Shown: piece after piece, positions 2,529-63,488 of the stretch
Layout of the letters: the number at the start of each line of letters is the position of its first letter
How positions within the stretch are numbered: position 1 is the stretch's first letter
Origin: Candidatus Heimdallarchaeota archaeon
GTDB lineage: Archaea > Asgardarchaeota > Heimdallarchaeia > Heimdallarchaeales > Kariarchaeaceae
Direction: 5' to 3'
Assembly (NCBI GenBank): GCA_030149205.1
Contig: JASBSB010000004.1
Span: 34,058 to 98,057 of the forward strand
Length of the DNA stretch: 64,000 nt
Position numbers and translations under genes: made by a program
Notes under the pieces: generated by a model
The model's input: the letters and a program-made list of their open reading frames with translations, nothing else
The model's database searches: none
Told to the model about the DNA's origin: nothing

Positions 2529-3654
2529 CCAAATAGACTGGTGGTAAGTTTTCCCTTTCTTTCACATATATGGCATATGGCATCCCATGATCATCAATTT
2601 CCTTAGGAATTGGGAGGTCAATCCCATCTATCTGTCCATACAGCTCAAATTCAGATCGAAGGGTTTCATCAAGTCCCTGATACTCTGTGACCAGAATATA
2701 TTTATAGTCAAGGGTTTGAAAGAACAAATCATCATTGAAATTTAATGGGTTATAGCGAAGATCTAATAGCAAACCTTTGTTTCCTTGGAAATCAGTTGAC
2801 ATGATTTTTGTGATATTGTTATGCTTTAGATCAAAATATCTTATATAATTACCATTGACCCCAAACCTTGGAACTTTGGTAAGAGTAAGGTGAGAAAGGA
2901 TCAGAACAGGTTCAGATTTGAACCTTGAGAATTTTAAGTATCGGACTATGATTGTGAGAATCCTGATTAGGGGAAAATAATAGTTTATCAAAAGAATTGT
3001 TTTGCTTTGATTTGCTGCCTTTGACTCATTTCTTGTGCTTAGAATGAAATCCCGCAATCTTATACTCTGAATGAAATCAATTTGTTGCTCAGCTAAAAAT
3101 TTTCTAAAGCTAATGCTATCTAACAATGAATTTTTCCAATAGAAATAAAGAATGACATCAAGGAACAAGATTGAACAACCGACCAAGAGAGAAATTTTTG
3201 TTAAGTCAATAGAAATTGTGGTTTCTTTAAGATATCTAAGTACCACAATAGTAACAATGACTGATGATACAGACATAAAGGTAATTAACACTGTCCAACG
3301 TGAATTAAAGATTGACTTGTAAAAGTTTAAAGGGGTTACGAGTGTTAGGGCAAATCCAAATGGTACCATGTAAATAGAGAAGAACATCATTATAAGATAA
3401 TAGGTATCCCCCCAGCTATACTGTATTAAAGAGAAACTCTGATTCAATGAAGCAGCACCAATTACTATAGTTTGAGCAACCACTTGCATCAGCAATGAGA
3501 GATTTAGTACGCGAAATTCACTAAAGTTTGAGATAAATGGATAGTCAGTCGCAGCATTTGAATTGATTCTGTTGTAGAAATCATTGATTAACGCAAAAGT
3601 GTAAAATTCCGAAAGATAGTCTGCTTCAATCTTAATAGGTTTTTGTCCATCCAC
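2497..3654 (-). CDS. hypothetical multi-pass membrane protein (partner-type gene of long-form cassette)
   Basis: 385-aa ORF with many hydrophobic helices. Sits directly downstream of 3660..4022 and 4041..4979 on the same strand. Confidence 0.5.
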   Translation of the reverse strand: MDGQKPIKIEADYLSEFYTFALINDFYNRINSNAATDYPFISNFSEFRVLNLSLLMQVVAQTIVIGAASLNQSFSLIQYSWGDTYYLIMMFFSIYMVPFGFALTLVTPLNFYKSIFNSRWTVLITFMSVSSVIVTIVVLRYLKETTISIDLTKISLLVGCSILFLDVILYFYWKNSLLDSISFRKFLAEQQIDFIQSIRLRDFILSTRNESKAANQSKTILLINYYFPLIRILTIIVRYLKFSRFKSEPVLILSHLTLTKVPRFGVNGNYIRYFDLKHNNITKIMSTDFQGNKGLLLDLRYNPLNFNDDLFFQTLDYKYILVTEYQGLDETLRSEFELYGQIDGIDLPIPKEIDDHGMPYAIYVKERENLPPVYLVVYPKENQRG

Positions 3655-3659
3655 TTTAC

Positions 3660-4022
3660 TTACCTCGTCATTATTGAGAAGCTCAGAAACCTTAAAAATA
3701 AATCAATTGTGTTTATCAAAAGATTGAGCTTTGTATCTGGAATGAGTGCATCCAAATTTGAATACTTTTTTGCTGCTTCCTTGAGCTTTTCTTCTGTACT
3801 TATGGTGAATCTCTCTGTTTTTGGAGTTTTTTCTCCAGTATTGATTATATTTATAAAGGTTAGTACTACTTCTTTCATGGATCCGATATAAGTTAAATCA
3901 CCACTCATTAATAAATTCTCTGCTGTCCCAACCCTAATACCTATCAAATGAGCAATAAACAAGACTGGATCCCCAATTATCAAATCTCTGTCTGCGATTA
4001 GTTTGTACAGGAATGAAAACAC
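3660..4022 (-). CDS. hypothetical soluble protein
   Basis: 120-aa ORF between long-form gene and membrane-protein gene. No recognisable motif. Confidence 0.3.
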   Translation of the reverse strand: MFSFLYKLIADRDLIIGDPVLFIAHLIGIRVGTAENLLMSGDLTYIGSMKEVVLTFINIINTGEKTPKTERFTISTEEKLKEAAKKYSNLDALIPDTKLNLLINTIDLFLRFLSFSIMTR

Positions 4023-4040
4023 CTTTGATTGAAATATTTC

Positions 4041-4979
4041 TTAAAATATCGGAAATAAGATAAGAGATATTACCTTGGTTGATTTGCTTTTGTCTGAGAG
4101 AAGCATTCCTCTATAATAAAACAGGTTGATCACAAACATTGTAAAATATACCCTTGCCAGGAACTGGTTGATAAACAGGAAGGTCATAGAGTTAAGGCTC
4201 GATTTCAGGAGTAGAGCGGTTGCCAATGCAGCAAACAGGTTTGAAACTGAAAGAGCAATCTGTATCCCTGTAGCCTTCGGCTTGTCTGTGCTGAGCAGTG
4301 GGTAGATCAACCAAAAGCTCACCATGTTCAGAGCCTCAATTATAAGAACTGAAAAGATGGTGAATCCAGCTGTCCGATAATCAATTAAAAGCGTCTCAAT
4401 TGATACAGCAACCTCAGAAAGCAGTTTGTTGAAGTTGATGACAAAAGAGTCAATCTGAAATTTAACATTGTCACCTGTCACAAGCATGGCGAAGCCTAAT
4501 TTTGTACCTGCGATTGATACTGTGGGAACTGCCCCTGAAGACCTTGTGACGTCAGGGAAAACGGCACTTAATAGTGAGAACAGACCATCTGTCAGGGTGT
4601 TAGTAAAGACCCCCAATACCTGAAGTATGACCTTAAAGACCTCTGCCATAATATAACTACCGGCCGCCTTGGTCCCGTCGACGAAGCTGGTGACGCCGTC
4701 CTTGATGGTCTGCAGGGCTGTGGTACTCATTGTCCAAAGCTTGCTGACAAAGTCCACCAGGGTCGCCCCAGGCTTGCCAATGATGCTCATCACCCACCGG
4801 TTCTGCTGCCAGCTGCCAGCAACATCAACGCACATCGTGATTAATCCATCATAGACAAAGTCAGCAAAGATCAGAGAAACAAAATTTGTTGGGTTCAACA
4901 AGTCTGCAATACTGTGGTTAGGCAGGATGAGTAAGGTCTCATAAGAGGTCTGGTGCATACAGGGTACTGGTCTGTTCAT
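4041..4979 (-). CDS. CxHQ-family hypervariable protein, long form (conserved 110-aa N-domain + unique hydrophobic C-terminal module)
   Basis: 312 aa. The N-terminus MNRPVPCMHQTSYETLLILPNHSIADLLNPTNF...MCVDVAGSWQQNRWVMSIIGKPGATLVDF...QTIKDGVTSFVDGTKAAGSYIM is almost identical to 10521..11930, 14611..14922 and the core of 21424..23268. The C-terminal 200 aa is unique with 4-5 TM segments. Own TATA promoter at 5011-5027. Confidence 0.65.
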   Translation of the reverse strand: MNRPVPCMHQTSYETLLILPNHSIADLLNPTNFVSLIFADFVYDGLITMCVDVAGSWQQNRWVMSIIGKPGATLVDFVSKLWTMSTTALQTIKDGVTSFVDGTKAAGSYIMAEVFKVILQVLGVFTNTLTDGLFSLLSAVFPDVTRSSGAVPTVSIAGTKLGFAMLVTGDNVKFQIDSFVINFNKLLSEVAVSIETLLIDYRTAGFTIFSVLIIEALNMVSFWLIYPLLSTDKPKATGIQIALSVSNLFAALATALLLKSSLNSMTFLFINQFLARVYFTMFVINLFYYRGMLLSDKSKSTKVISLILFPIF

Positions 4980-5007
4980 AAGTAAAAGTACAAGACCATT
5001 AAAGCTT

Positions 5008-5030
5008 CCCTTTATATAAATTTATCCTAC
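5008..5030 (-). promoter_or_regulatory. archaeal TATA/BRE-like promoter of long-form gene 4041..4979
   Basis: Coding-strand GGATAAATTTATATAAAGGG lies about 30 nt upstream of the ATG. The same GGATAAAYTTAT(A/T)(A/T)A element recurs upstream of the other long-form genes. Confidence 0.55.
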
Positions 5031-5290
5031 AGAAAGTGATCGGTAGAACAGAAGCTTGATCAAGTATATGTCCTGATGAAAAGAGAGATACAAAAATCTT
5101 TGACTATACAATGGAGTTGTTCCTAGCCTATAAGGATTGTAAGTAGTCACTTTGGAAGCTTAATAACGATATAAATCCTGTAGAAGTGAGAATTTTTGGT
5201 TAAAATAACTTCAGCCAAATACAATGTGAACTTATTCATTTATTGGTCTATTCAGGATCAAATTCTAATCACGTTCTACTTAAAAAAAAT

Positions 5291-9703: not shown

Positions 9704-10528
9704 TTATTTATCCTTACTAGACAAATTTTGAACGATTGAGCTACCGATTAAAAATAAGAATATAAAAACAAAGAGTCTAAATATTAAACTTGACCACATC
9801 ATAATTTGAAAGGGCATATTTTTTGTTCTGTATAGTTGTGAGCTATAGCCAATTAAAAATACGACTGTGATTAAAATGTGTTGGATCAAAGCATTAATTA
9901 TCTCCCAATTGACTCTAGAGATTGATTTTTTGCTTTCACTAATTGGGAAATAGCTATAATCTTTCATTTTATTTATAAAGTCATCAATTGAATTGGAATT
10001 TACTAAAATATAATTTATACCATCCCAAATATAGAGCTTGCTTTTAAAATTTTGACTTAGGGTTGCTTGAAGGTTAAACAAAAATTCTAGCATCAGAAAC
10101 GGTTGTAAAAAGACGGGGAGAGGAATTATCTTCCTTATATACTCATTTTGTGGTGTCGTATAAGTTTTCGAAGGATTATCAATAATCTCTTCTTCAATTA
10201 TTTCAAATATTTCCCTTTTTATTAAGATATTTTTTTTATTTGTAAAATCAACGTGATTGAACTTCTTGGAATAAATTTTTATCCTTGAGACTAAGAATAG
10301 ATATATCGTTGCTTGTATTAATACTTCAGTTAAGACTACAAGTCCTATATAACCCACTTGAGAGGGGAGTCTAGTAAAATCTTCAATAGTTTTTGGACGC
10401 ATAATTTGGTATACAAAAGGATATAACAAATAAATTAAATAATAACGAAGAAAGTAATTTACATTCCCATTATAGAAAATTAATTTTCTGTTGAGAGTGA
10501 GTAATTGTTTGATATTCATCTTAAACAC
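9704..10528 (-). CDS. hypothetical multi-pass membrane protein, cognate partner of 10521..11930
   Basis: 274 aa and hydrophobic. Start overlaps the stop of 10521..11930 by 8 nt. Confidence 0.5.
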   Translation of the reverse strand: MFKMNIKQLLTLNRKLIFYNGNVNYFLRYYLIYLLYPFVYQIMRPKTIEDFTRLPSQVGYIGLVVLTEVLIQATIYLFLVSRIKIYSKKFNHVDFTNKKNILIKREIFEIIEEEIIDNPSKTYTTPQNEYIRKIIPLPVFLQPFLMLEFLFNLQATLSQNFKSKLYIWDGINYILVNSNSIDDFINKMKDYSYFPISESKKSISRVNWEIINALIQHILITVVFLIGYSSQLYRTKNMPFQIMMWSSLIFRLFVFIFLFLIGSSIVQNLSSKDK

Positions 10529-11930
10529 GAACTCTAAATCCTAAGGCATAATTAACTAAGCCAAAGATTATATGGTAGTAAGCATAAAGCATAATAGATT
10601 GACCGTAGGCCATAAATCTTGAGGCTTGATCAGCTTTCGCTCTAGAATCCTTTACTTTTGGAAATGCAAACCTGAATGGTAAGTATCCTGCAATTAAACC
10701 CAAACCTGCTCCAATGAGCAACCCAACGAAGTTGTTATCAGAAAGTGCAGAAAAGTCTAGGTTATAGATCATATTATTTACCTCTTCCCCAACCCTAAAA
10801 ACAAGACTTATAGATGAAGCCCTTTGTGCTACTAAATTTAATATCTTCCACATTAATCCATCTTGTTTTAGAAATGAAACGATTGATTTTGCCAGCTTTA
10901 ACTTTGAATTTTTATCCATATTTTTGGCTAAGTTTTCAAAAATTGTTTTACCAGATCTAATTTGTGTGTTAAGTTTTCCCAATCTTCCATTTCCTGAGTT
11001 ATATTTAATTATTCCATCATCTATAAACTCACTGCGCTTAGTGTGTATTTGTTTTAACAGACTTAACCCCATTATTATATGAAATACGGTATTTATGCCA
11101 GTAACTTGCTGAAACCTCTTTTTATCATCCCAAAATGTAATCAAGGGGGCTATATTTGCAATAAGGTTTACGAGTGTTGCAGCCAACACGGCGAAATTAA
11201 GAGTCCCTACTGTTTCAGGGGTTGGTGGGAAAGGCTTTGCAAAAATCTGAATTGCTAAGTGACCGATCAAATCTACAAGGTGTAATCCCAATGCAGTAGA
11301 TTGTGGGGTGGATAACCCCCCTAATGTTTCAAATTTAAACCCTGATAAAAAGACCGGATCTAGCACACTAAATTTAAAATTTTTTAAATTATCAGAAGAA
11401 ATAATCAGGTAAACCCTATTTACATCAAATTGTACTTCTAAACCTAACAGAATCGAACTTCCCTCTTTGAGTTTATCTCCAGAAACTGTATCATAACTCA
11501 ATTGTGGTATCAATGTTGACATTGTAAAGAAGAATGTTTTGATTATCATTTTTAATAAAATTTGAATTACAGCATTAATTACTAATTTTAATGTATCAAC
11601 TATGTATTGTCCAGCCGCCTTGATCCCGTCGACGAAGCTGGTGACGTCGTTTTTGATGGTCGTTAAATCATCTTGTGTCACGCTGAACACCCCAAAGAAA
11701 AAGTCCACCAGGACCCAGCCGGGGTGCCCAATCAGCCCCATCACCCACAGGTTCTGCTGCCAGCTGCCAGCAACATCAACGCACATCGTGAGTAATCTGT
11801 CATAGACAAAGTCAGCAAACACCTGAGAAATAAAATTTGCTGGGTTCAACAAGTGTGCAATACTGTGCTTAGGCAGGATGAGTAAGGTCTCATAAGAGGT
11901 CTGGTGCATACAGGTTGCTGATCTATTCAT
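10521..11930 (-). CDS. CxHQ-family hypervariable protein, long form (unique 350-aa C-terminal module)
   Basis: 469 aa. The N-terminal 110 aa (MNRSATCMHQTSYETLLILPKHSIAHLLNPANF...MCVDVAGSWQQNLW...DVTSFVDGIKAAGQYI) matches 4041..4979 closely, including at DNA level. The C-terminus is unrelated to the other members. Own TATA promoter at 11961-11978. Confidence 0.65.
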   Translation of the reverse strand: MNRSATCMHQTSYETLLILPKHSIAHLLNPANFISQVFADFVYDRLLTMCVDVAGSWQQNLWVMGLIGHPGWVLVDFFFGVFSVTQDDLTTIKNDVTSFVDGIKAAGQYIVDTLKLVINAVIQILLKMIIKTFFFTMSTLIPQLSYDTVSGDKLKEGSSILLGLEVQFDVNRVYLIISSDNLKNFKFSVLDPVFLSGFKFETLGGLSTPQSTALGLHLVDLIGHLAIQIFAKPFPPTPETVGTLNFAVLAATLVNLIANIAPLITFWDDKKRFQQVTGINTVFHIIMGLSLLKQIHTKRSEFIDDGIIKYNSGNGRLGKLNTQIRSGKTIFENLAKNMDKNSKLKLAKSIVSFLKQDGLMWKILNLVAQRASSISLVFRVGEEVNNMIYNLDFSALSDNNFVGLLIGAGLGLIAGYLPFRFAFPKVKDSRAKADQASRFMAYGQSIMLYAYYHIIFGLVNYALGFRVRV

Positions 11931-20651: not shown

Positions 20652-21431
20652 TTACACAGCTGAGACAACTTTTATTTTGCAAAATGAACAAATCTTGACT
20701 GTGAGCCAGTCAAGATACGCAGCAAAAACCAATATTCCAGCCTTAGAAACTACAAATACTACTAAAACACCTGATCCTCTGTCCGAGATGAAATTTTGTC
20801 CCAGAAATGCCAGTGCTATTAAGTTTTCAACAAAAATTAATGCTATAACACCATAAGCGATTAAGTCCCAACTTCCCAAATCAGATAACAGTTTATCCTG
20901 AAAAATGTTAACAAAAAATAGGAGAATAAACAGAAGCAATGCAGTTATCTTTACTGTATCCCATTCATTGTCTAGGAAACTCAAAACAAAAAGAGAAATT
21001 AAGATAATCAATCGAGCAAAAAACAACCTATATTTTCTTACCTCAAATTTTTTCGATTCAGAGTTAAACACCTTTCTAAGCACAGGATCATCAGAAAAAA
21101 TATCTGAGGCAATTATGGCATAGATAGCTAGTATCATCAAAAATAAATTTCTACTAATTATTACACCCAAAAACCCTAGAATTGAATAGCTGTAATATAC
21201 CAAATAGTCTTTATCTCTTTCAGTAATTTTATGGAGAAGTATTCGACTAATTGTTTTAGAAATTATTACTAAGATCATCATTCCTCCTAGGATACCAAAC
21301 CCCTCCCAGCTTAGGAAAGAGACCCTGTTTTGGAGTTGAATGTAAAGCATTATTGGAAACAGCAACATAATTACTTGTCGCAGAAAAAAATTCGTTAGAC
21401 GCAAATTTTCTGGTTCCATAATATCACACAA
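20652..21431 (-). CDS. NFxLRQ-family multi-pass membrane protein (immunity-like partner of 21424..23268)
   Basis: 259 aa. Homologous to 13847..14614 and 61845..62657. Start overlaps the stop of 21424..23268 by 8 nt. Confidence 0.55.
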   Translation of the reverse strand: MCDIMEPENLRLTNFFLRQVIMLLFPIMLYIQLQNRVSFLSWEGFGILGGMMILVIISKTISRILLHKITERDKDYLVYYSYSILGFLGVIISRNLFLMILAIYAIIASDIFSDDPVLRKVFNSESKKFEVRKYRLFFARLIILISLFVLSFLDNEWDTVKITALLLFILLFFVNIFQDKLLSDLGSWDLIAYGVIALIFVENLIALAFLGQNFISDRGSGVLVVFVVSKAGILVFAAYLDWLTVKICSFCKIKVVSAV

Positions 21432-23268
21432 CTGATGAAAACAGTTTTAGCACCTCTTTGAATATAAAAAACAAAAAGGGTAAAACCACAAGAGAGTACC
21501 CTTTTTTGCTAAAGAAGGTTGCTGCTGCCTGAGGGTCTCCTTTTCCAAATTTATCCAGCACTGCATAGCTGACGATCTCTCCACTTGCTACGCCTGCGAG
21601 CCAGAAGTACATCGTTGGTGTCAGGGGATTATCAATCACATTGTCCTTAAAATCGTTGTAGCTCGAGATGAAAATATATAAGAGTTTAGCTAAACTCGTC
21701 TTAGCTGTTAATTTGTTCTCTTTTGCGAACTCTTCTAAGACCTTTTTGAATCCATTTTTACCCTCCTTGACTATCGTTTTGACTGCCTTTCCAGCATTAT
21801 ACACTGTATATGAGAATGGTAAAACAAAGATCAGCGCAGAAAGCCATCCAACCATAAGTTTGTCGAATTCATCAAGGTCTTCCTTTGTCCATGGGTTAAG
21901 GTTTACGTCAGCAAAGAGATACCTGTTCCTCTCTCTGAATATATTTATGAAAGTCAGTAATAGTACGGCTTGTGATGCAATAAAGAGCCCTAGGGACGTA
22001 AGGGTGGCACCCAAGGGGCCCAACACAGGTACAGCCCCATTGGTCTTTTGTGATAACGCACTGGCAATATAGGCTGCATTAAGCAGAGAGAGCCCTATCC
22101 CCTGTGCCCAAACAAGGGAATCAGCACTTGACCCAGCGGGAGAAAGGGTCTCACTGCCGATGATCAGCTCTAAAATGGTCTGGAATAGATCAACTGTGGT
22201 TGTTTTGCCCCCAACCACCATTTTCATTGTTGATACACCAACAAGCTCTATGGTTATATCTAACACCTTGTTATCGATGTATGAGGTGAGACGGAGGCCA
22301 TTTGGGATTAGCACGGTGTTATATCCGGGAGAGGTCTCACCAAGTGTTAAAAACAACGCATTAACGACATTTCGAAAGATAGAGATCAGACCCTCCATTA
22401 TAGGCTTAATCACCTTGTTGACGAAGAACTCTCCGGCGAATTTCACCCCATCGACGAAGCTGGTGACGCCGTCCTTGATGGTCTGCAGGGCTGTGGTACT
22501 CATTGTCCAAAGCTCACTGACAAAGTCCACCAGGGTCGCCCCAGGCTTCCCAATGATGCTCATCACAGTGTTCCACAGGTTCTGCTGCCAGCTCCCCGCA
22601 ACATCGATGTAGGTGTCATAGATGTGGTCAGCAAAGACCAGGATGGCAACCTTGGCGACAGCCACATAGTCCAGGCCTGTATTGGGGTCATACCTCAGAT
22701 TGTTTGGATGGTCAAGGTTCAGCTCAGTGATCAAGGCGTCGTCCTTCAGGATCACGTTTGCCAGCCGGTTCTGCTGGGGCTCCTCCTTGTACCAGTTGAT
22801 GATGCGCTCCACTGAGCCAAAGCCATAGTCGTTGATCTTGCCCCAGACGAAGTCAAAGAGCTTGTACTCCCTGTAGATGACCACATTTCCAATCTTGATG
22901 TCATAGCCAAGCCAGCTGTTCAGGATGCTCTTGGTGTTGGCCCTCAGGCTGTTGAAGTCCTGCACCACCTTCTCCAGCAGCAGAGAGACATCAAAGACCC
23001 GGTCCTTGGTGGGTTGTGTCTCACTGGCAGTCTTCATGGAGGCACGCGCAGTTGGTGGCACCTGTGCCGCCTGCTTCTCATTGTCCGGGCTCCAGCTGAA
23101 GCCTGTCCCCTTGATCAGGGCTGTCAGCACCGAGTGGTTGGCAGCCAACTGGTGACGTGGGGCAAACTCAAGGGTTTCCTGATGTTTTAGGATTTGAGCT
23201 CTGTATCGATTTAACCCGAGCTCAAAGGGTGTAGAATTGCCGCATTGAACTCTGTATCTTTGATGCAT
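21424..23268 (-). CDS. CxHQ-family protein, full-length archetype (GC-rich 230-aa N-terminal extension + conserved core + type-A C-terminal module)
   Basis: 614 aa. Its N-terminus (RYRVQCG..FELG and ILKHQETLEF..HQLAANHS) contains degenerate versions of both the short-form and the long-form N-terminal motifs. The core IDVAGSWQQNLW...GKPGATLVDFVSELWTMSTTALQTIKDGVTSFVDGVKFAGEF is DNA-identical in stretches to 4041..4979. The C-terminal 330 aa is paralogous to 273..1400 and 60719..61834. 22600-23268 is about 55% GC against about 33% background. Confidence 0.65.
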   Translation of the reverse strand: MHQRYRVQCGNSTPFELGLNRYRAQILKHQETLEFAPRHQLAANHSVLTALIKGTGFSWSPDNEKQAAQVPPTARASMKTASETQPTKDRVFDVSLLLEKVVQDFNSLRANTKSILNSWLGYDIKIGNVVIYREYKLFDFVWGKINDYGFGSVERIINWYKEEPQQNRLANVILKDDALITELNLDHPNNLRYDPNTGLDYVAVAKVAILVFADHIYDTYIDVAGSWQQNLWNTVMSIIGKPGATLVDFVSELWTMSTTALQTIKDGVTSFVDGVKFAGEFFVNKVIKPIMEGLISIFRNVVNALFLTLGETSPGYNTVLIPNGLRLTSYIDNKVLDITIELVGVSTMKMVVGGKTTTVDLFQTILELIIGSETLSPAGSSADSLVWAQGIGLSLLNAAYIASALSQKTNGAVPVLGPLGATLTSLGLFIASQAVLLLTFINIFRERNRYLFADVNLNPWTKEDLDEFDKLMVGWLSALIFVLPFSYTVYNAGKAVKTIVKEGKNGFKKVLEEFAKENKLTAKTSLAKLLYIFISSYNDFKDNVIDNPLTPTMYFWLAGVASGEIVSYAVLDKFGKGDPQAAATFFSKKGYSLVVLPFLFFIFKEVLKLFSSVV

Positions 23269-23294
23269 GGACAGATACTATAAAATAAAGACTG

Positions 23295-23315
23295 GAGCTA
23301 TATAAGTTTATCCAG
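23295..23315 (-). promoter_or_regulatory. archaeal TATA-like promoter of 21424..23268
   Basis: Coding-strand GGATAAACTTATATAGC lies about 29 nt upstream of the ATG and matches the long-form promoter consensus. Confidence 0.45.
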
Positions 23316-23406
23316 TGGGAGTTAGATAACTGAGGAACCTCTCCCCCGTACTTTTGGTTCAGCCAGCCATCCACAGCTATTTATACAATCTCTGCTGAGG
23401 GGGGCT

Positions 23407-24309
23407 GTGGCGTTTGACAGCAGCTTCAAGAACATCCTGAAAAGACTTTTTGCAGGGCTTGGGGTGACGGTAATCACCGAGAGTGAGGTTCCGGTGGCAA
23501 ACCAGCGTATCGATTTTCTCATCCCTAACAACCCTCGTCTGAAAGGCACCCCCTTTTTTCATGCACGTGAGCTGGTAATTGGAGAGTTCAAGAGTGAGCG
23601 AGACAGGCTCTTCCCTGGGGATCTGTTGATGCTGATCAGCAAGGCTTACAGCCACCTGGCAGTCAGCTATGGCTATGCTGGCAAGAGAAGCGAGCTCCCG
23701 AAAAGCGCACTCAATCAGGTGAGCTGTGTCCTGATCCTGGGTGGCAACAAGTCAATTGAGACGCTCTCACCGCTTGGGCTGGACTTTCAGGAGCTGGAGG
23801 CAGGTGTGCATGAGTATCAGGGACTGCTACACCTTTTGGTGATAGAGCTTGACAAGATCAGGGAGATGGGGGATATGGATCTGCTGCTGCTCTTTGCCAG
23901 TAAACAGAGAAGAAGACAGGTGATTCAGGATGCTCTCACACAAAACGACAGGTTTATTAGCTCTGTTAGTTATTTGTTATATAAGAAGGAGTGGCAAGAG
24001 ATGTCAACAGACCCCGAATCAATCAGTATTAAGGAGGCAGTGGAATTCTTGGGTGTGGCCAGGGTGATCAATGAGGTGGGGCTGGAGCGAGTGATCCAGG
24101 AGGTTGGGATCAACAGGGTGGTTGACGCAGTGGGACTGGAGAAGGTGGTCGAAGCAGTGGGACTGGAGAAGGTGGTTGACGCAGTGGGATTGGAGAAGGT
24201 GGTCGATGCAGTGGGATTGGAGAAACTGGTCAAAAGCATTGATCCCAAGAAAATTAGCCCTGAGGTCAAGCAAGCTCTTCAGGATTTGTTGAATAAAATA
24301 AATAGCTAA
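23407..24309 (+). CDS. PD-(D/E)XK-fold nuclease family protein (Rpn/YhgA-like putative recombination nuclease) with C-terminal tandem decapeptide repeats
   Basis: 300 aa. RIDFLI...ELVIGEFKSE fits a D...(D/E)xK nuclease motif. The C-terminus has VVDAVGLEK repeated 4-5 times. The gene is GC-rich relative to the genome and divergently oriented from 21424..23268. Confidence 0.5.
   Translation: MAFDSSFKNILKRLFAGLGVTVITESEVPVANQRIDFLIPNNPRLKGTPFFHARELVIGEFKSERDRLFPGDLLMLISKAYSHLAVSYGYAGKRSELPKSALNQVSCVLILGGNKSIETLSPLGLDFQELEAGVHEYQGLLHLLVIELDKIREMGDMDLLLLFASKQRRRQVIQDALTQNDRFISSVSYLLYKKEWQEMSTDPESISIKEAVEFLGVARVINEVGLERVIQEVGINRVVDAVGLEKVVEAVGLEKVVDAVGLEKVVDAVGLEKLVKSIDPKKISPEVKQALQDLLNKINS
24058..24233 (+). 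repeat. 30-bp tandem repeat (about 4 perfect + 2 degenerate units) inside the nuclease gene
   Basis: GTGGTTGACGCAGTGGGACTGGAGAAGGTG repeated head-to-tail, encoding (AVGLEKVVDA)n. It is open in several frames, which explains the overlapping track ORFs on both strands. Confidence 0.8.
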
Positions 24310-47423: not shown

Positions 47424-48836
47424 GTGAGTTCACAACTAAGTCTTGATGTAATGATTTTATACTCATTTGCATTTGTACTATTTATACTAGTTAACATGTT
47501 TTTTGTGGCATCGGAATTTTCCTTTGTGAAAGTCAGATCCTCAAAAATGAAACTTTTGGAAAAAGAGGGAAACAAACGAGCAACCAAAGTGTTGTTTATC
47601 TCCAAACATTTGGATGATGCACTTTCCAGTACACAACTTGGAATCTCCCTTGCCTCAATCGGTATTGGGTTTGTTGCAGAGGCATTATTTACCTCATTTT
47701 TGTTGAGTTTTCTTGGAATTTTTGGGATCACTGAAAAGAGTATTCCAAGTCTTGCAGGAATCGGATTTGTAACTGGTTATGTGTTAGGTACATACTTTCA
47801 TGTTGTACTTGGTGAGTTGTTTCCTAAATCCATAGCGATTAGAAAGGCAGAAGCAACTGCTTTATGGTTATCTTCTCCGATGTACTGGTTTATGAAGGTT
47901 TCAACCTACCCAATGCATTTCCTAAATTGGTCTGCTGAGCACGTTTTAAGGCTCTTCAATATACAGCCAATCTCAGAGTTTCATGGTAATGTATTTGGTG
48001 AAGAAGAGCTTAAGCTAATTATTCAGCAGTCCCTTAGAGGTGGTGAACTTGAGGAGTATGAATCCAGACTGATCTATAGAATCTTTCAATTCACTGACAC
48101 CCCTGTGAAATCTCTTATTACTCCACGACATGCAATTAAAGCTTTATCCTCAACTGCAACATTGGATGAGGTGATAACACTTGCCAAGGAAACAGGTTAC
48201 AGCAGATTCCCGATCTATCAAGACAAACTCGACAGCATCATCGGATTTGTTCACATTAAAGATGCCATTGCAAAACTTGATGAGAAAACCAATGGATCCA
48301 AAAATTTAGTCAGTGGGTATCTACGCCCCGTCATCACAGTTCATGAGAATCACCCCGTTGATGACCTACTTCAAGAAATGCAAAAACAGAGGACCCAGGT
48401 ATCTGTCGTCGTTGATGAATGGGGATCAGTCGCAGGAATAATCACTATAGAAGACATTCTTGAGGCAATTGTCGGACCCATTCGAGATGAATTTGACTAC
48501 TATGAAGACGGGTCACTCATCTCCAAGTCAAAAAATGGACTTATTGTGCTCCCCAAGATCACAATAGCTGAATTTAATGAGTACTTACAGAATCTCCGTC
48601 CTAACGTGTTCCTTCGTGAAGAAGGTGATGCAGTCACACTGGCTGGATACCTCCTTGACCTCATAGATTCTAAAATTCCAAATGAGGGGGACACCTTGTC
48701 AGACAGTACTTTTGACTACAAGATCTTAAAGATGAACGGCAACAGAATTGAAAAGGTTTTGGTGCTGGATCACGGTTCCGATAAATTTGATTACTCAGTA
48801 CAAAAATCTGAAGAAGAACTCATGGATCAGCTTTAA
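47424..48836 (+). CDS. CNNM/CorC-HlyC family transporter (DUF21 membrane domain + CBS pair + CorC_HlyC domain)
   Basis: N-terminal 4-TM DUF21-type region (ASEFSFV), tandem CBS domains, and a C-terminal transporter-associated domain. GTG start in track; ATG at 47451 is an alternative. Confidence 0.8.
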   Translation: MSSQLSLDVMILYSFAFVLFILVNMFFVASEFSFVKVRSSKMKLLEKEGNKRATKVLFISKHLDDALSSTQLGISLASIGIGFVAEALFTSFLLSFLGIFGITEKSIPSLAGIGFVTGYVLGTYFHVVLGELFPKSIAIRKAEATALWLSSPMYWFMKVSTYPMHFLNWSAEHVLRLFNIQPISEFHGNVFGEEELKLIIQQSLRGGELEEYESRLIYRIFQFTDTPVKSLITPRHAIKALSSTATLDEVITLAKETGYSRFPIYQDKLDSIIGFVHIKDAIAKLDEKTNGSKNLVSGYLRPVITVHENHPVDDLLQEMQKQRTQVSVVVDEWGSVAGIITIEDILEAIVGPIRDEFDYYEDGSLISKSKNGLIVLPKITIAEFNEYLQNLRPNVFLREEGDAVTLAGYLLDLIDSKIPNEGDTLSDSTFDYKILKMNGNRIEKVLVLDHGSDKFDYSVQKSEEELMDQL

Positions 48837-50333
48837 TTACTTATATGGAAAGATTTTATCATAAAGGTAGACTGAAGCATAACTGAAGCTTTCAACAATA
48901 TCATATGGATAATAGTTTACCTTTCCGCTCCAAAATTCATTAAGTGGTTTATTTGCATATTTCTCTGGTCTGAGTATTCTATCTTTAACAAGAATATAAT
49001 ACGGAACGATATATCTATCCAAATAATTCATACTTATCATTTTGTGTTTTAATAGATATAAAAAAGTGAAAAGAACCATATTCATTTCTTCATAAACTAA
49101 TTTTTCTTTTTTATCTTCTTTGTCATTAATTAGATTTAAAAGTCGTAAGAGGTACAGCTGAGTGATTTCTTCATTAAATGGTGTGACGGCAAGGATTACC
49201 ATACAAATTTGATTGATTTCTGATACTATATACTTTGAATTCAGCAACACTTTGTCAACATTTTTTTTGAGATACCCTGAAATCTTTTTGATTATGTCTT
49301 CTTTGTTAGCGATGTCTAGAGTTAAAGCTGCCTCCAAAATATGTACATTTGAAACAAACGATGAACCTAATTCAAAGGGATATGTGTAATAATATTCATC
49401 ACCCCGATAGTTTTCCAACACATCAAATAATTTTGAAGAATCTTGGCTACTATACTTATCTAATAATAATAAAGCAATAGATGTGTCATCACTATCGGGA
49501 ATTTGAAAGCTTTTTCCTAAGCTTAATCCATTCTGAATCCATCTAGACTCAATTAAATCTATCTTTCGTTTAACTGGTTCGCTAATGGGGATTTCACTTT
49601 TATAAAAAGGATACAGAGAGTATACATTGTTAAAATTCTCAAAGTCATTTAATGTTTGCACAAGCAACTCTTTAGTTGTAGAGTGAAATAAATAATCTAC
49701 ACCTTTTACTTCGAATCCTTTGACCCTATATTTCAACAATATGGTTGTGCTTGACGGAGAATTCCCCAACGAATTGTTATTCCCAACTAGATTTGCTACA
49801 ATATTTGCATCAATTTCATTGTCAACAACACCTTCCATTGAATGCAACATTGGAGTGTAATCAGTAAAAGCCTTTTTCCCTAATAATTTAAGTTTCATAT
49901 TTTTTGTTTTTTCCAATTCAGAGATTGTGGTTCGATGTGACGATATTTTTTCTGTGATATTCGAAAAAAGCTTTGAATAAGTGAACTCGAAACCGGTGGG
50001 ATAAGTAAAATTTGATTTAAACACCTTTTCATGTCGATCTAAAAGCCAGGATAACCCTCTTTCAAACTTCTCAATGTACTCTGGTTTTTTATAATATCCT
50101 AGTTCCACCATCATTGAAAGTACACTGGCTGTGTTTACCAAGTTGTCAAATGGTGTGTTGGGATTATTTGCCCCCCAACTTCCGTCATTTTTCTGATGCA
50201 TCAACACGCTTTTTGCATGTCTAGGAAACCTAGGATTTCCTAATATATCCTTAACAGACCCCACATAAGCTGTGTCATATATTGTTCCTTTCATACCTCT
50301 TACCCCAAGGTTGAACAAAAATGATGATATCAT
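48837..50333 (-). CDS. class II terpene cyclase-like protein (copalyl-diphosphate-synthase/squalene-hopene-cyclase fold)
   Basis: N-terminal IYDTAYVGS resembles the conserved SAYDTAWVA motif of class II diterpene synthases. HQKNDGSWG is a QW/DGSWG-type repeat. IPDSDDTSIALLL matches the catalytic DxDDTA motif. The track ORF extends to 50525; start chosen at the in-frame ATG at 50331-50333 (alternatives at 50294 and 50354). Confidence 0.5.
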   Translation of the reverse strand: MISSFLFNLGVRGMKGTIYDTAYVGSVKDILGNPRFPRHAKSVLMHQKNDGSWGANNPNTPFDNLVNTASVLSMMVELGYYKKPEYIEKFERGLSWLLDRHEKVFKSNFTYPTGFEFTYSKLFSNITEKISSHRTTISELEKTKNMKLKLLGKKAFTDYTPMLHSMEGVVDNEIDANIVANLVGNNNSLGNSPSSTTILLKYRVKGFEVKGVDYLFHSTTKELLVQTLNDFENFNNVYSLYPFYKSEIPISEPVKRKIDLIESRWIQNGLSLGKSFQIPDSDDTSIALLLLDKYSSQDSSKLFDVLENYRGDEYYYTYPFELGSSFVSNVHILEAALTLDIANKEDIIKKISGYLKKNVDKVLLNSKYIVSEINQICMVILAVTPFNEEITQLYLLRLLNLINDKEDKKEKLVYEEMNMVLFTFLYLLKHKMISMNYLDRYIVPYYILVKDRILRPEKYANKPLNEFWSGKVNYYPYDIVESFSYASVYLYDKIFPYK

Positions 50334-50568
50334 CTCTTCTTTTGCGTTTATCATTAGGAGTACGACTCTTAATCTTTTTTTGTATAAAAAGGTAACGAAA
50401 TAATGTCTTGAAAAGAAATTTTGCTGATGTTTTACACATCCCATTGAATTATTGCTACCTGAAAAGTAGTTATTAGGCCAGAATACTTTCGGTGTGCTCT
50501 CTCTCCTGCCAGAATCCTGATTCAAAAGTGTTTTAGTCTAGAAGTACCAAATATATTTAGAAAAAATA

Positions 50569-51492
50569 ATGGCAGTAAGTAATCATGAAGGTGTTGAAAG
50601 TACAAAAACACAAAATAATAAGACTACAGAAAGTCAAGCAGCAAAATCTGCATTAGAAAAATTGGCTGTAAATTCTTATTCGTTTGAAAGCGCCTTTTCG
50701 GTTCTCAAAAAACGACAGCAATACTTTCGGATATCCACTGGAGCAAAATCACTAGATGAAATATTAGGTGGTGGAATCGAACCTTCAGCAATCACAGAAT
50801 TTTATGGTGAGTTTAGAACTGGAAAGACACAGATTTGTTTGCAGTTGGCAGTTCATACAGTCATGTCGAAGGAGCTTGGTGGTTTGGATGGAAAGGTGAT
50901 TTACATTGACACTGAGGCAACCTTTAGACCAGAGAGGCTTCTGCAGATGGCAAAGCGATACACATTAACTGATGTTCTTGAAAATATCTATGTTGGCAGA
51001 CCCCAAAGTGTAAAAGAACAGATGCAGTTAGTACAGGAGCTTAATGATATAAAGCCAGATGAAAACGTAAAGCTTTTGGTTCTTGATTCCTTAACCAGTC
51101 ACTTTCGAGCAGAATACATTGGGACACCTCAGTTATTGGAAAGACAGCAACTCTTAAACAAACATATGAGTGACCTGCTGAAACTGGCACTAAACAAAAA
51201 TATCGCTGTTGTTGTAACAAATCAAGTGATTTCAAATTTCTTGACTAATGACAAACTTGCAGTTCAAGCGGTTGGAGGACATATTGTGGCACATGCATCC
51301 ACACACAGACTTGAGTTAAGCAGGCCATACTCTCAGCCCAGTCAAAAACCATTTCTAAACGCAAAGCTTGTGGATTCTCCAAACCTTCCTGAAGCCACAG
51401 CATATTATGAAATCACTGCATTTGGTATTGAAGATATTAAAAGTAAAATAAATCCGAAACTTTTACAGGAAATTCAAAAACAGAAACATTAA
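50569..51492 (+). CDS. RadA/Rad51-family recombinase paralogue
   Basis: Strong colinearity with archaeal RadA core (LDEILGGGIE..AITEFYGEFRTGKTQ...IDTEATFRPERL...LLVLDSLTSHFRAEYIG...LLERQQ.L.KH...VVVTNQV). The Walker A has RTGKT instead of GSGKT, and the N-terminal HhH domain is degenerate. Confidence 0.65.
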   Translation: MAVSNHEGVESTKTQNNKTTESQAAKSALEKLAVNSYSFESAFSVLKKRQQYFRISTGAKSLDEILGGGIEPSAITEFYGEFRTGKTQICLQLAVHTVMSKELGGLDGKVIYIDTEATFRPERLLQMAKRYTLTDVLENIYVGRPQSVKEQMQLVQELNDIKPDENVKLLVLDSLTSHFRAEYIGTPQLLERQQLLNKHMSDLLKLALNKNIAVVVTNQVISNFLTNDKLAVQAVGGHIVAHASTHRLELSRPYSQPSQKPFLNAKLVDSPNLPEATAYYEITAFGIEDIKSKINPKLLQEIQKQKH

Positions 51493-60011: not shown

Positions 60012-60539
60012 TTGAGTATTGGTCAAATTGCGGGAATAATCTATTTTACATTTTGGTCTGTGTTTGTCTTCTACCTCTTAACCTATGTAAAATTCCAATT
60101 GTCCAGCCTTTTCAGACTTCAAGACACGAGGTCTTTCCTAGAATCATATTTAACTTTAAAACGAAGAAATGGTAGATCTTTTGCTTATATCAACTTTTCT
60201 GCAAATCTGCTATTTGGGTTTATAGGTTTTTTTATACTATTTGGAAGAATCATTGAGCTATTTTACAACCTCTATTATTACATTCTGATGTTTGGGGTGA
60301 CAGTGATTTCACTCATGGCTGTTGAAAGCAGACTTCCCTTAAGCGCAGACACTCGTGAATATATCATGAGTCAACGTGTTCCTGTAATCTCCCTTTTCTC
60401 CCTTTTTTTCACCAGGAATGGTGAAAAGTTAAAATACAGGGCGGATGTATGGAAGCTCATTCCAATCAAAGAATTAATTGGGTATTATAGCCTTGCAATT
60501 TTAGGGTTAATTTTTTATCAATTGTTTTATATCCCTTGA
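60012..60539 (+). CDS. hypothetical multi-pass membrane protein (paralogue of 6641..7183)
   Basis: 175 aa with TTG start. Shares the conserved LESYLTLKRRNGRSF block and TM layout with 6641..7183. Confidence 0.55.
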   Translation: MSIGQIAGIIYFTFWSVFVFYLLTYVKFQLSSLFRLQDTRSFLESYLTLKRRNGRSFAYINFSANLLFGFIGFFILFGRIIELFYNLYYYILMFGVTVISLMAVESRLPLSADTREYIMSQRVPVISLFSLFFTRNGEKLKYRADVWKLIPIKELIGYYSLAILGLIFYQLFYIP

Positions 60540-60589
60540 GGAAAGTTGATTTTTATCTAGATTCATCATACGGGGATGGGGGGAAAAAA

Positions 60590-60718
60590 AAAATTATTCT
60601 GGTAAAAAATGTTATAGTTCAGACATACAGGGTGGCTTACAAGTAGTTTTTGAGACTTAGGATAATAAAGAAAGATAAGATTTTTTGTTAAGATATGATT
60701 TTTGTGCGATAAACTTAA
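60590..60718 (+). repeat. conserved about 130-bp upstream element of plus-strand short-form genes, copy 1 (copy 2 at 63560..63699)
   Basis: CTGGTAAAAAATGTTATAGTTCAGACATACAGGGTG..TTACAAGTAGTTTTTGAGACTTAGGATAATAAAGAAAG...TTTTGTGCGATAAACTTAAATG, about 85% identical to 63560-63699. Confidence 0.6.
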
Positions 60719-61834
60719 ATGAGATTGATAGATAACAGATATGTGTATCTTTGCCTTCATCAGGATTCATTTACAATTAATACAGGTTACAAATACGCTA
60801 TTTACATCTATTCTCAGACCATCAAGGACGGCGTCACCGTAGATGGGGTGAAAGCAGCCGGGGAGTTCATCGCCACCAACATCATCAGACCCATAGTGGA
60901 GGGCTTGGCAACCGTGTTTCGAAGCATCCTCACCGCTATGTTTCTCACACTTGGTGAGACCTCGTCAGGATACCAGACGACGAAAACAGCCACTGGATTT
61001 ATCTTTAAATCATTTATTGACAATAAGGAGGTAAGTGTATCAGTGACTGTGGACAGCTCAAATCAACTAATGTTTACTGTTGGTATCAAATCATTCACTA
61101 TAGATTTGTTTAAGCTCATATTAAATTCAATAATACCTTTTGAAACCCTTTCTCCCGAAAGTGCGATTAATGGTATAATAACAGCCACAGTTTTCGAGAA
61201 CATTTTTACAAATATCGCATTTGTTGCTATGGATAAATCTAAAGAAGCTGGTGCCGGATCAATGGGAATAGGAGCGGCGGTTGCCTTAACAATTTCATTA
61301 ATGTCAATGTTATATGGTTCAGCAACATTTTTAGGAAATTTTTTAGCTCGATGGCACAATAGAAATAAATTCAGTGGAGAGGAATTAAAACAATATGATC
61401 ATCTATTTAAGTCATGGATTTCTTTATATAAGGTTACACTCACACTCTCAATAACCTTATATTATTTGGGTAGAAATTTATATAAACTCCGCAACATTAT
61501 GAAACAGGAAGGCCAAACTTTGACTTCAAGTATTTCTAAAGTTTTAAAAGAAAACTTTGAAATTCAAGGCTACACAAGTCCTGCAATTGCGTCAGGTTTA
61601 TTTTTTGTAGCATTAAGTACAATAGTTATGGATTTTACGGAAGTCATATTACTTCAACCAACAATGACGATGTGGATAGCTTTCTTAATCGTATTAGCTT
61701 CAGAAATAACTACATACGGTCTTCTTGATTTGGGGAAAACTCCTCTGTATAACTTAAAAATTTTTATATCTGCAATTGTATTTCCAAATACCTTATATAG
61801 GTTAGAGTTACTTATTTTGGATAATTTTGTATAG
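60719..61834 (+). CDS. CxHQ-family hypervariable protein, short form with type-A C-terminal module
   Basis: 371 aa. MRLIDNRYVYLCLHQDSF...SQTIKDGVTVDGVKAAGEFIATNIIRPIVEGL, then a 4-TM C-terminal domain paralogous to 273..1400 and the C-terminus of 21424..23268, but strongly diverged. Confidence 0.65.
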   Translation: MRLIDNRYVYLCLHQDSFTINTGYKYAIYIYSQTIKDGVTVDGVKAAGEFIATNIIRPIVEGLATVFRSILTAMFLTLGETSSGYQTTKTATGFIFKSFIDNKEVSVSVTVDSSNQLMFTVGIKSFTIDLFKLILNSIIPFETLSPESAINGIITATVFENIFTNIAFVAMDKSKEAGAGSMGIGAAVALTISLMSMLYGSATFLGNFLARWHNRNKFSGEELKQYDHLFKSWISLYKVTLTLSITLYYLGRNLYKLRNIMKQEGQTLTSSISKVLKENFEIQGYTSPAIASGLFFVALSTIVMDFTEVILLQPTMTMWIAFLIVLASEITTYGLLDLGKTPLYNLKIFISAIVFPNTLYRLELLILDNFV

Positions 61835-61844
61835 GTGACCTATT

Positions 61845-62657
61845 ATGAAACTTATTTCAATTCTTGGTTTAAATTTTTTCCTAAGACAATCCTTAGTTTT
61901 AACTCTGCTAAGTTTTTTGATCTTTACTCATTTCATAGCTTATCCAGTTAAAATTTACTATTTTTACGAAATTTTAACATTTTCGGGTATCTATTTAATG
62001 AGTGTAATGTTTTCAATTATTGGTCAATACCAACTCAAAGATACTAACCATGGAATAATTTTTGTTAATAAAGAAAGGTGGAAAGTCTTGACACCTATGA
62101 TGATTTTTTGGTTTGTTTTAATATTTAATGTGTTTTCAAACATGATGTATCAGGCAAATACAATATTCCGACACCTTTTTGCTATAATGACTTTTTTTTT
62201 ACTATTGCATTATTTTGAAACCGTCATTGAAGGGTCACTATATCCTCAGTTAATTAAAGAAAGCAGATCCAAATCAGCAACAAAAGTTAACCGTTTCTTG
62301 TTCTTATTGAGGTTCTCACTAATTTTTACTATATTTGCATTGATTCTTACAAAAAATTCTATTGAGATTCTCCTTATTATTACTACTGTATTATTTGGGG
62401 GTTCACTGGTGTCAAGTGCCTTGTTTAACTTAAAAACAAAGTCCTCCTTAAAAATAACTATCGAGGTGATTCATGCAATTTTCCTCATGGACTTCCTTCT
62501 AGTTTTTATCGATTACCTGATTAGTCCTGATTCTAATATATTTATATTGGGATTAACTTTTCTTCAGTTGATATTTATATATTTATTAAGTGAACTTCCA
62601 TACTTATATCAAGTTCCTCAATTGATTTTACAATCATTCATAATAAATGATAAATGA
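61845..62657 (+). CDS. NFxLRQ-family multi-pass membrane protein (immunity-like partner of 60719..61834)
   Basis: 270 aa. MKLISILGLNFFLRQSLVLTLLSF is homologous to 13847..14614 and 20652..21431. Lies 10 nt downstream of the family gene. Confidence 0.55.
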   Translation: MKLISILGLNFFLRQSLVLTLLSFLIFTHFIAYPVKIYYFYEILTFSGIYLMSVMFSIIGQYQLKDTNHGIIFVNKERWKVLTPMMIFWFVLIFNVFSNMMYQANTIFRHLFAIMTFFLLLHYFETVIEGSLYPQLIKESRSKSATKVNRFLFLLRFSLIFTIFALILTKNSIEILLIITTVLFGGSLVSSALFNLKTKSSLKITIEVIHAIFLMDFLLVFIDYLISPDSNIFILGLTFLQLIFIYLLSELPYLYQVPQLILQSFIINDK

Positions 62658-62868
62658 GGGTGGCATCCTAGCAATACTCTTGACTCTGACACCTTATGTT
62701 GGATCACTTGCATATCTCATCTCAGAGGCAGTGGGTTCTGCTGGTTTAACGGCATTAAAGGCAATCTATAAAACATATCAGATGGGAACTGTATTAATGG
62801 TAGCAAGTATAACACATCTGATACTTGCCTCTCTCTTTGCTTTAAAAGGTGGGAATAGGTTCTTGTGA
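62647..62868 (+). CDS. small hydrophobic protein
   Basis: 73 aa with two TM segments. Overlaps both neighbours. Confidence 0.3.
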   Translation: MINEGGILAILLTLTPYVGSLAYLISEAVGSAGLTALKAIYKTYQMGTVLMVASITHLILASLFALKGGNRFL

Positions 62869-63488
62869 ATAGGCTGGTGAATAACATGAAGCTTAAAAAT
62901 AGATTTAAACTGGATGATGCTGTATATTTGATCACACTTCTATCAGTCCTTATCTTGCTTTATTCTCGCTTGATTGATAAAATAGGACTTATCGTAACAG
63001 CTCTAGCAGTGTTCCTTTATCCCCAGCGTTTCTTTGTGATAGCTATTTATCAACTATTCAGGGAACATAGAACCAAAAAATTAGTCTATAACCTTTTGGG
63101 ACTAATACTAATTTTTTCTGCCCTATCACTCTTACTAACTATTTCTGTTAAAACAAACTCGTTTTTGATCTTAACCCTCACATTCTGTAGTTTTTATGTC
63201 CTAAAGGCAATTTTTTTCTACAGGGTTTATGATAGAGACCTCAAAGATAGGAAATACCGTAAAACAGTTACAGGGGCGGTATTCAGGGTATCCACACCGT
63301 ATTATTTTCTTGTGTTCTTTTTAGTAGCAGTGATTCTTCAGCCTGTGAGTCCTTTAGATCCCAGTGGATTCACATTTTTGATGCTTGTAATGGTCATTTC
63401 AATTTTCTTTAATGGCTTCTGTAATTGCGATGATATCGATCATGAACTAAAGAGCATTTGGCCAAAAGGTATCCCAACTTGTTGTTAG
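62865..63488 (+). CDS. hypothetical multi-pass membrane protein
   Basis: 207 aa with about 6 TM helices. Confidence 0.45.
   Translation: MNRLVNNMKLKNRFKLDDAVYLITLLSVLILLYSRLIDKIGLIVTALAVFLYPQRFFVIAIYQLFREHRTKKLVYNLLGLILIFSALSLLLTISVKTNSFLILTLTFCSFYVLKAIFFYRVYDRDLKDRKYRKTVTGAVFRVSTPYYFLVFFLVAVILQPVSPLDPSGFTFLMLVMVISIFFNGFCNCDDIDHELKSIWPKGIPTCC

Follow-up and report, generated by a model that had tools for sequence, protein, structure and literature searches.

Geranylgeranyl diphosphate (GGPP) is made by every archaeon for its membrane lipids, and the question raised by the locus described here is whether a heimdallarchaeal gene encodes an enzyme that cyclises this precursor and, if so, into which product. 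The DNA analysed (hereafter, the window) is a stretch of 64 kb from contig JASBSB010000004.1 of Candidatus Heimdallarchaeota archaeon BWSM_123, and the gene is a minus-strand open reading frame (ORF) with its stop at position 48837 and a maximal extent to 50525. An earlier note, made from the nucleotide letters, had read this ORF as a class II terpene-cyclase-like enzyme in an archaeal setting. That identity is supported by sequence evidence, by the predicted fold, and by the conservation of catalytic residues. As judged from sequence and model, the protein is very probably a stand-alone beta-gamma class II diterpene cyclase, with predicted activity. The archaeal setting is also borne out, because the divergent neighbour of the gene encodes RadA and the closest homologues lie in metagenome-assembled genomes (MAGs) of Heimdallarchaeota.

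The family searches that the earlier note had proposed as a check (SQHop_cyclase and terpene_synth in Pfam) came back empty for the protein itself, for which neither Pfam-A nor NCBIfam gave a relevant match, although among 73 aligned relatives SQHop_cyclase_C is matched by 63, SQHop_cyclase_N by 45, and the N-terminal domain of plant Terpene_synth by 19. Routine annotation would therefore probably give this cyclase no family assignment, and the assignment made here rests on phmmer searches of the Protein Data Bank (PDB) and on profile and fold evidence. The best PDB match of the single sequence was the labda-7,13E-dienyl diphosphate synthase of Grindelia (9B99, E = 3.2e-17), followed by the miltiradiene synthase of Selaginella (7WAT, E = 2.4e-14), the ent-copalyl diphosphate synthase (ent-CPS) of Arabidopsis (AtCPS; 3PYA, E = 1.1e-13), and Rv3377c of Mycobacterium tuberculosis (6VPT, E = 2.2e-13). 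A word-indexed homologue search gave only four distant relatives; an exhaustive phmmer search of 1.84 billion representative sequences was used instead and found 307 homologues, mostly of about 500 amino acids (aa), including a tight group (P0006-P0011) with 31-37% identity to the window cyclase. When the profile of the clade alignment (A1) was compared with the PDB, the best match was Rv3377c (6VPT, E = 1.8e-58, residues 17-498); the plant enzymes followed at E values of about 1e-46 to 1e-41, and squalene-hopene cyclase (SHC) came far below at 3e-6.

The structural evidence comes from AlphaFold2 (AF2). A model built on the single sequence was unusable (predicted local distance difference test, pLDDT, 40), and it was replaced by a model built on a 73-sequence alignment (A3), with a pLDDT of 95.5 and a predicted template-modelling (TM) score of 0.94. 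The predicted fold is the beta-gamma double alpha/alpha-barrel of about 500 residues. The comparison with known structures that the earlier note had proposed was made with Foldseek, and the model fits the class II diterpene cyclases: 6VPT ranks first among the PDB entries (TM score 0.79/0.82, E = 1e-15), and next come AtCPS, the class II domain of a Penicillium CPS, PtmT2, and Tpn2. Drimenyl diphosphate synthases and SHC are clearly lower (E = 5e-7, TM score about 0.6). The best 42 Foldseek matches are all terpene cyclases, and TED-type proteins (TEP1 and complement C4Adg) appear only at an E value of about 1e-2.

Two other families were considered and rejected. A glycoside hydrolase or another toroid family (complement TED or the beta subunit of protein prenyltransferases) finds no Pfam match here, and Foldseek favours terpene cyclases throughout. 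A triterpene cyclase (SHC or oxidosqualene cyclase) does not agree with the single DGSWG motif, with a length of 498-505 aa against about 630-760, or with a profile E value of 3e-6 against 1.8e-58.

Three peptides had been quoted in the earlier note as hallmarks of the family, IYDTAYVGS, HQKNDGSWG, and IPDSDDTSIA; all of them are present in the ORF where the note had placed them, and they align with motifs of solved diterpene cyclases (Table 1). Because phmmer lines up YDTA, DGSWG, and DSDD with the SAYDTAWVA, DGSWG, and DIDDTA of plant CPS-type enzymes, the three motifs are not chance matches. The third peptide keeps its role as the catalytic Asp motif after proper alignment with plant CPS and Rv3377c, D280-S-D282-D283-T284 lying on D293-C-D295-T-T of the latter. 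The second is indeed a QW-like motif, as the note had said, but it is not a repeat: there is one copy only and no SHC-like series. When the window is translated in all six frames, there is a single DGSWG and a single YDTA, and D.DDT is found twice. Residues Y19, K147, E167, D282, and K367 are invariant in all 73 family sequences; the clade alignment (A1) shows no variation at Y19, D20, T21, and A22; and conservation of Q47 and D50-G54 reaches at least 90% in the 73-sequence alignment. Residues are numbered throughout on the 498-aa version of the protein, and the correspondence with Rv3377c numbering was checked in both a HMMER and a MAFFT alignment.

The catalytic residues can be interpreted in the light of work on Rv3377c, the halimadienyl diphosphate synthase of M. 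tuberculosis (MtHPS). In that enzyme, D295 is the general acid, H341 activates the acid, and Y479 is the base for halimadienyl diphosphate; activity is abolished by the D295A substitution, the product shifts to labda-8,13-dienyl diphosphate with Y479F and with Y328F, and F171H, at the site that holds the catalytic-base His in ent-CPS, brings in the formation of copalyl diphosphate (PMC9585517). The acid-activating residue, which is hydrogen-bonded to the middle Asp, is Asn in plant enzymes and His in bacterial ones, and a widely conserved (D/E)KW motif lines the active site (PMC9585517). In the alignments, D282, H331, Y318, K471, and Y474 of the window cyclase correspond to D295, H341, Y328, K476, and Y479 of Rv3377c, and three of its Lys residues, K147, K367, and K471, are shared with cyclases that use GGPP. 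The alignments thus show both acid machinery and halimadienyl base to be conserved, and two product-related positions, H164 and S366-K367-Y368 (SKY), deviate. In the SKY triplet, the Lys is the invariant one and the aromatic residue is retained as Tyr.

The gene is already known: it was catalogued in a preprint by McShea, De Anda, Brocks, Welander & Baker (2025/2026; bioRxiv 10.1101/2025.02.07.637177). By text search, our ORF sequence matches the row JASBSB010000004.1 of Table S1 of that preprint, a table that prints the first part of its entries only; the row names Ca. Heimdallarchaeota archaeon BWSM_123, a MAG from ballast water, and is marked 'Not tested'. The authors' set comprises 64 putative diterpenoid cyclases of archaea; Asgards, mostly Heimdallarchaeia, account for 31. 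Two of the four Asgard homologues that they assayed in vitro, OLS20947.1 (Heimdall LC2, Kariarchaeaceae) and WAPZ01000551.1 (Hodarchaeales S146_22), converted GGPP into halimadienyl diphosphate, and the other two, OLS12628.1 (Loki CR_4) and WAPZ01000470.1, gave no product; according to their methods, the enzymes were functional only with chaperones (bioRxiv 10.1101/2025.02.07.637177).

By BLASTP, the window cyclase has 33-38% identity to four proteins of Kariarchaeaceae/Heimdallarchaeales (JAJRQD010000059.1, WAKA01000042.1, WAMJ01000055.1, and JAJRWK010000064.1) and 28% to a protein of Ca. Margulisarchaeum. In a rough neighbour-joining tree, it forms the deepest and longest branch of a distinct Kariarchaeaceae/Heimdallarchaeales subclade, to which these four proteins also belong. 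The three known producers of halimadienyl diphosphate (M. tuberculosis, LC2, and Hodarchaeales) are scattered elsewhere in this tree, and halimadienyl diphosphate is therefore a reasonable default product for the window cyclase. At the position equivalent to F171 of Rv3377c, the residue is Phe in OLS20947.1 and Tyr in WAPZ01000551.1; it is His in the window cyclase and in P0006 and P0011 of the subclade. The whole subclade has (S/G/N/T)K(Y/F) in place of a literal (D/E)KW.

If these correspondences hold, the reaction may be pictured as follows. GGPP, the presumed substrate, would bind at the beta/gamma interface of the soluble, stand-alone cyclase. D282, oriented by H331, would protonate the terminal C14=C15 double bond, and the cation would bicyclise to the labda-13-en-8-yl+ diphosphate in a pocket lined by aromatic residues (Y318 and Y368). 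After hydride and methyl shifts, a proton would be taken, probably by Y474, to leave a bicyclic diphosphate. The most likely product would be halima-5,13-dienyl (tuberculosinyl) diphosphate (HPP), as for Rv3377c and the two Asgard homologues. That the window protein cyclises GGPP is supported by analogy with the published in vitro work on Asgard homologues, and sequence and model together make an active class II diterpene cyclase highly probable. Analogy gives HPP, specifically, about an even chance of being the product. The step from GGPP to HPP was demonstrated with the relatives only, and it is from the homology, the fold, and the conserved acid and base residues found here that we infer the substrate, product, and activity of the window protein.

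How the gene is placed in related genomes bears on this question. The closest genomic relatives, four loci (L002-L005) in Heimdallarchaeota or other archaeal MAGs, share a conserved mini-cluster around the cyclase gene. In L002, the order is a gene for a membrane protein (famA), an Rv3378c-like gene, the cyclase gene, and an adenosine deaminase gene; in L005, it is famA, an intervening ORF, the Rv3378c-like gene, and the cyclase gene; and in both L003 and L004, it is a HAD hydrolase gene, the cyclase gene, and famA. The famA product, a polytopic membrane protein of about 330 aa encoded in all four loci, has no Pfam or PDB match (alignment A4). The Rv3378c-like proteins (alignment A2) match the structure of tuberculosinyl-adenosine transferase (3WQK, E about 4e-14). 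The arrangement in L002 and L005 mirrors the Rv3377c-Rv3378c pair of M. tuberculosis and, by this analogy, hints at nucleoside-diterpene chemistry. At positions 2628-5161 of locus L001, the gene of a distant homologue (P0002, 25% identity) is followed immediately downstream by a class I terpene synthase gene (Terpene_syn_C_2); this is the usual pairing of a class II with a class I diterpene gene, which the Asgard loci do not show.

In the window, the cyclase gene is monocistronic and stands alone, between a convergent CNNM/CBS/CorC transporter gene and a divergent archaeal radA gene, with two ABC exporter genes and genes for a PAC2 protein, an MCP protein, and a HEAT-repeat protein further out. 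In a synteny comparison of the window with the related Heimdall loci, the cyclase gene is the only one shared.

Several observations speak against the window protein being an active HPP synthase. Identity is about 23% to each of the validated Asgard HPP synthases and 22% to Rv3377c (BLASTP), and the nearest assayed relative, OLS12628.1 (32%), is one of those without product in vitro. H164 stands in place of F171, where a change to His gains copalyl diphosphate in Rv3377c, and SKY stands in place of the widely conserved (D/E)KW. Single substitutions can flip the product outcome in the class II cyclase family. Among the features of HPP synthases, the equivalents of the base Tyr and of Y328 are present, the F171 position has no non-basic aromatic residue, and the window shows no linkage to an Rv3378c-type gene. 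The neighbours conserved in the mini-cluster of the four closest relatives are missing from the window: hidden Markov models (HMMs) of the Rv3378c-like proteins and of famA found nothing in the 64 kb, and the Pfam scans likewise revealed no Rv3378c-type gene. A Pfam scan of nearly all window ORFs (those of at least 120 aa, minus a few nested inside larger ORFs) revealed no class I terpene synthase, polyprenyl synthase, or cis-prenyltransferase, nor did it show a dedicated GGPP synthase or another terpene partner.

It is because of H164 and SKY that we count it as possible, if on the unlikely side, that the enzyme acts on GGPP and releases something other than HPP: copalyl or labdadienyl diphosphate by early deprotonation, a clerodane-type kolavenyl diphosphate, or a new scaffold. 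H164 lies where ent-CPS has its catalytic-base His, T227 and L228 replace A234 and F235 of Rv3377c (also product-determining positions), and the window cyclase belongs to a subclade separate from the assayed enzymes. However, Y474 and Y318, the counterparts of the residues that enforce HPP in Rv3377c, are kept, HPP producers are spread over this part of the tree, and the Asn of the His-Asn dyad of ent-CPS is replaced by Thr here. A more tentative idea, and in our judgement a rather doubtful one, is that the Kariarchaeaceae/Heimdallarchaeales subclade as a whole is functionally distinct from the characterised Asgard HPP synthases, its marks being His or a variable residue at the F171 position, the (S/G/N/T)K(Y/F) motif, and, in the relatives, the adjoining membrane protein of about 330 aa. 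If so, these enzymes could produce another bicyclic diterpenoid or supply a membrane-associated pathway undescribed in archaea, and the BWSM_123 cyclase would work without an Rv3378c-type adenosine transferase.

The substrate might also be different, whether farnesyl diphosphate, as in drimenyl diphosphate synthases, a prenyl diphosphate of greater length, or an archaeal lipid precursor that carries a prenyl group. Archaea hold several prenyl diphosphate pools, and there are no pathway neighbours in the window to constrain the substrate. Nevertheless, we regard this as highly improbable, since drimenyl diphosphate synthases and SHC are far weaker structural matches (Foldseek E = 5e-7 and TM about 0.6, versus 1e-15 and 0.8), the SHC profile match is equally distant (3e-6 versus 1.8e-58 for Rv3377c), K147, K367, and K471 are retained, and two Asgard homologues use GGPP. 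Scarcely more probable is a dead or decaying homologue, a relic parted from its pathway genes. Such a relic would be consistent with the failure of two of the four assayed Asgard homologues, the nearest one included, to give a product, with the absence from the window of the cluster partners found in all four closest relatives, and with the longest and deepest branch of the subclade in the rough tree. Against this, the ORF is intact and full-length, it retains every acid and base residue as well as the positions invariant in the family, the AF2 model is compact and very confident, and a plausible promoter is present. The negative results of the preprint may also be folding failures, because its enzymes were functional only with chaperones. 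An active class II diterpene cyclase acting on GGPP, with HPP as its default product, is thus the reading that we adopt.

Three starts were considered for this gene: 50333, giving 498 aa, as in the earlier note; 50354, giving 505 aa; and that of the deposited NCBI protein (P0001) at 50444, giving 535 aa. The ORF proposed in the note stands, and its start probably does not. The N-termini of the homologues align about seven residues upstream of the Met at 50333 (clade alignment A1), and a TATA-like box, TTTTTATA, lies at a suitable place further upstream (Table 1); the ATG at 50354 is for these reasons the most probable start on the sequence evidence, and the deposited protein probably has 30 N-terminal residues too many. 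The GC content at the cyclase gene is 0.35, equal to that of its flanks.

Table 1. Positions of the cyclase gene, its motifs, its immediate neighbours, and the mini-clusters of related loci (window positions, except for the mini-clusters, which are given in the positions of each locus)
Feature	Position	Strand	Basis or remark
Probable coding sequence, class II diterpene cyclase, 505 aa	48837..50354	-	ORF, homologue N-termini, profile match, AF2/Foldseek
TATA-like box TTTTTATA, putative archaeal promoter	50383..50390	-	read from sequence; about 30 nt upstream of ATG 50354
IYDTAYVGS, N-terminal (S)AYDTAWVA-type motif, residues 18-26	50256..50282	-	phmmer alignment
HQKNDGSWG, single QxxDGSWG (QW-like) motif, residues 46-54	50172..50198	-	phmmer alignment
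H164, at the Rv3377c F171 / AtCPS catalytic-base His position, product-determining	49842..49844	-	alignments, PMC9585517
IPDSDDTSIA, residues 278-287	49473..49502	-	
D280-S281-D282-D283, DxDD catalytic motif	49485..49496	-	D282 predicted general acid (= Rv3377c D295)
H331, predicted acid-activating His (= Rv3377c H341)	49341..49343	-	alignments
S366-K367-Y368, variant of (D/E)KW (= Rv3377c D378-K379-W380)	49230..49238	-	alignments, PMC9585517
Y474 (= Rv3377c Y479, catalytic base for halimadienyl diphosphate)	48912..48914	-	alignments, PMC9585517
CNNM/CBS/CorC transporter gene, convergent neighbour	47424..48836	+	
radA, divergent neighbour	50569..51492	+	
Mini-cluster of L002	50..4651		
Mini-cluster of L005	1747..6255		
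Mini-cluster of L003	329..3608		
Mini-cluster of L004	146..3510		

Several other features of the window should be mentioned. The stop codons of the cyclase gene and of its convergent neighbour are adjacent (48836 and 48837; site 48834-48839), and no intergenic space is left for terminators. A trace of a UbiA prenyltransferase was seen in a 207-aa ORF at 62865-63488 (+), below threshold (E = 6e-4, 19.6 bits where 34.2 are required); this ORF has no NCBIfam support, the three ORFs next to it (60012-62657) have no family matches, and, at about 12.5 kb from the cyclase gene, it is probably unrelated to it. At the other end, more than 20 consecutive minus-strand ORFs of 120-469 aa fill positions 273-21431 with no Pfam match at E<=1e-3. 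A PHROGs search of ten ORFs of this orphan region, including that at 21424-23268, gave one weak tape-measure match (E = 1.7e-4, ORF 10521-11930), and possible explanations of the region are an integrated virus, a mobile element, and an island confined to this lineage. From about 21800 to 24200, there is a 2.4-kb island of 44-54% GC in a genome of 35% GC, which overlaps the ORFs 21424-23268 (-) and 23407-24309 (+). Neither ORF has a Pfam match, the former has no PHROGs match and the latter no NCBIfam match, and an Rfam search of the island itself gave nothing even at E<=1; foreign DNA and an undescribed structured RNA are both possibilities.

No known archaea are more closely related to eukaryotes than the Heimdallarchaeia, and it is for this reason that cyclic diterpenoids in Asgard archaea matter. 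McShea et al. have already made this case and supported it with enzymology (bioRxiv 10.1101/2025.02.07.637177). The addition made by the window is modest: one clean, full-length member of an unassayed subclade, substituted at known product-determining positions. Its context indicates that a cyclase gene of this kind is also found apart from the transferase and membrane-protein genes that go with it in its nearest relatives.

Among known systems, SHC (1SQC/2SQC) belongs to the same superfamily of beta-gamma double alpha/alpha-barrels and likewise protonates its substrate by the Asp of a DxDD-type motif. It has many QW motifs, whereas the window cyclase has one, is about 130 residues shorter, and carries the diphosphate-binding Lys residues typical of diterpene synthases. 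The plant class II diterpene synthases (AtCPS 3PYA, 9B99, 7WAT, and 3S9V) are the best single-sequence PDB matches (E = 3e-17 to 1e-13) and share the YDTAWVA, DGSWG, and DxDDTA motifs as well as a His at the catalytic-base position of AtCPS. In contrast to the window cyclase, they have an additional alpha domain, vestigial or active (about 730-790 aa in total), an activating Asn where His is found here, and, in the His-Asn dyad, an Asn where Thr is found here.

Rv3377c (MtHPS, 6VPT) is the best match in both profile and structure, as a full-length beta-gamma didomain, and the window cyclase keeps its general acid Asp, its activating His, Y328, and the base Y479. The two differ in overall sequence (about 22% identity) and at particular sites, the window cyclase having DSDD for DCDT, H164 for F171, and SKY for DKW. 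They also differ in their surroundings: Rv3377c adjoins Rv3378c, and the cyclase genes of L002 and L005 have an Rv3378c homologue directly upstream, whereas the HMM search found none in the window. The Asgard HPP synthases OLS20947.1 and WAPZ01000551.1 are set apart by an identity of about 23%, by their position outside the subclade, and by the His at F171 and the Tyr at the W380 position of the window cyclase. They nevertheless belong to the same family and the same host phylum, and they share with the window cyclase the DxD motif, the His equivalent to H341, and an aromatic residue at the W380 position.

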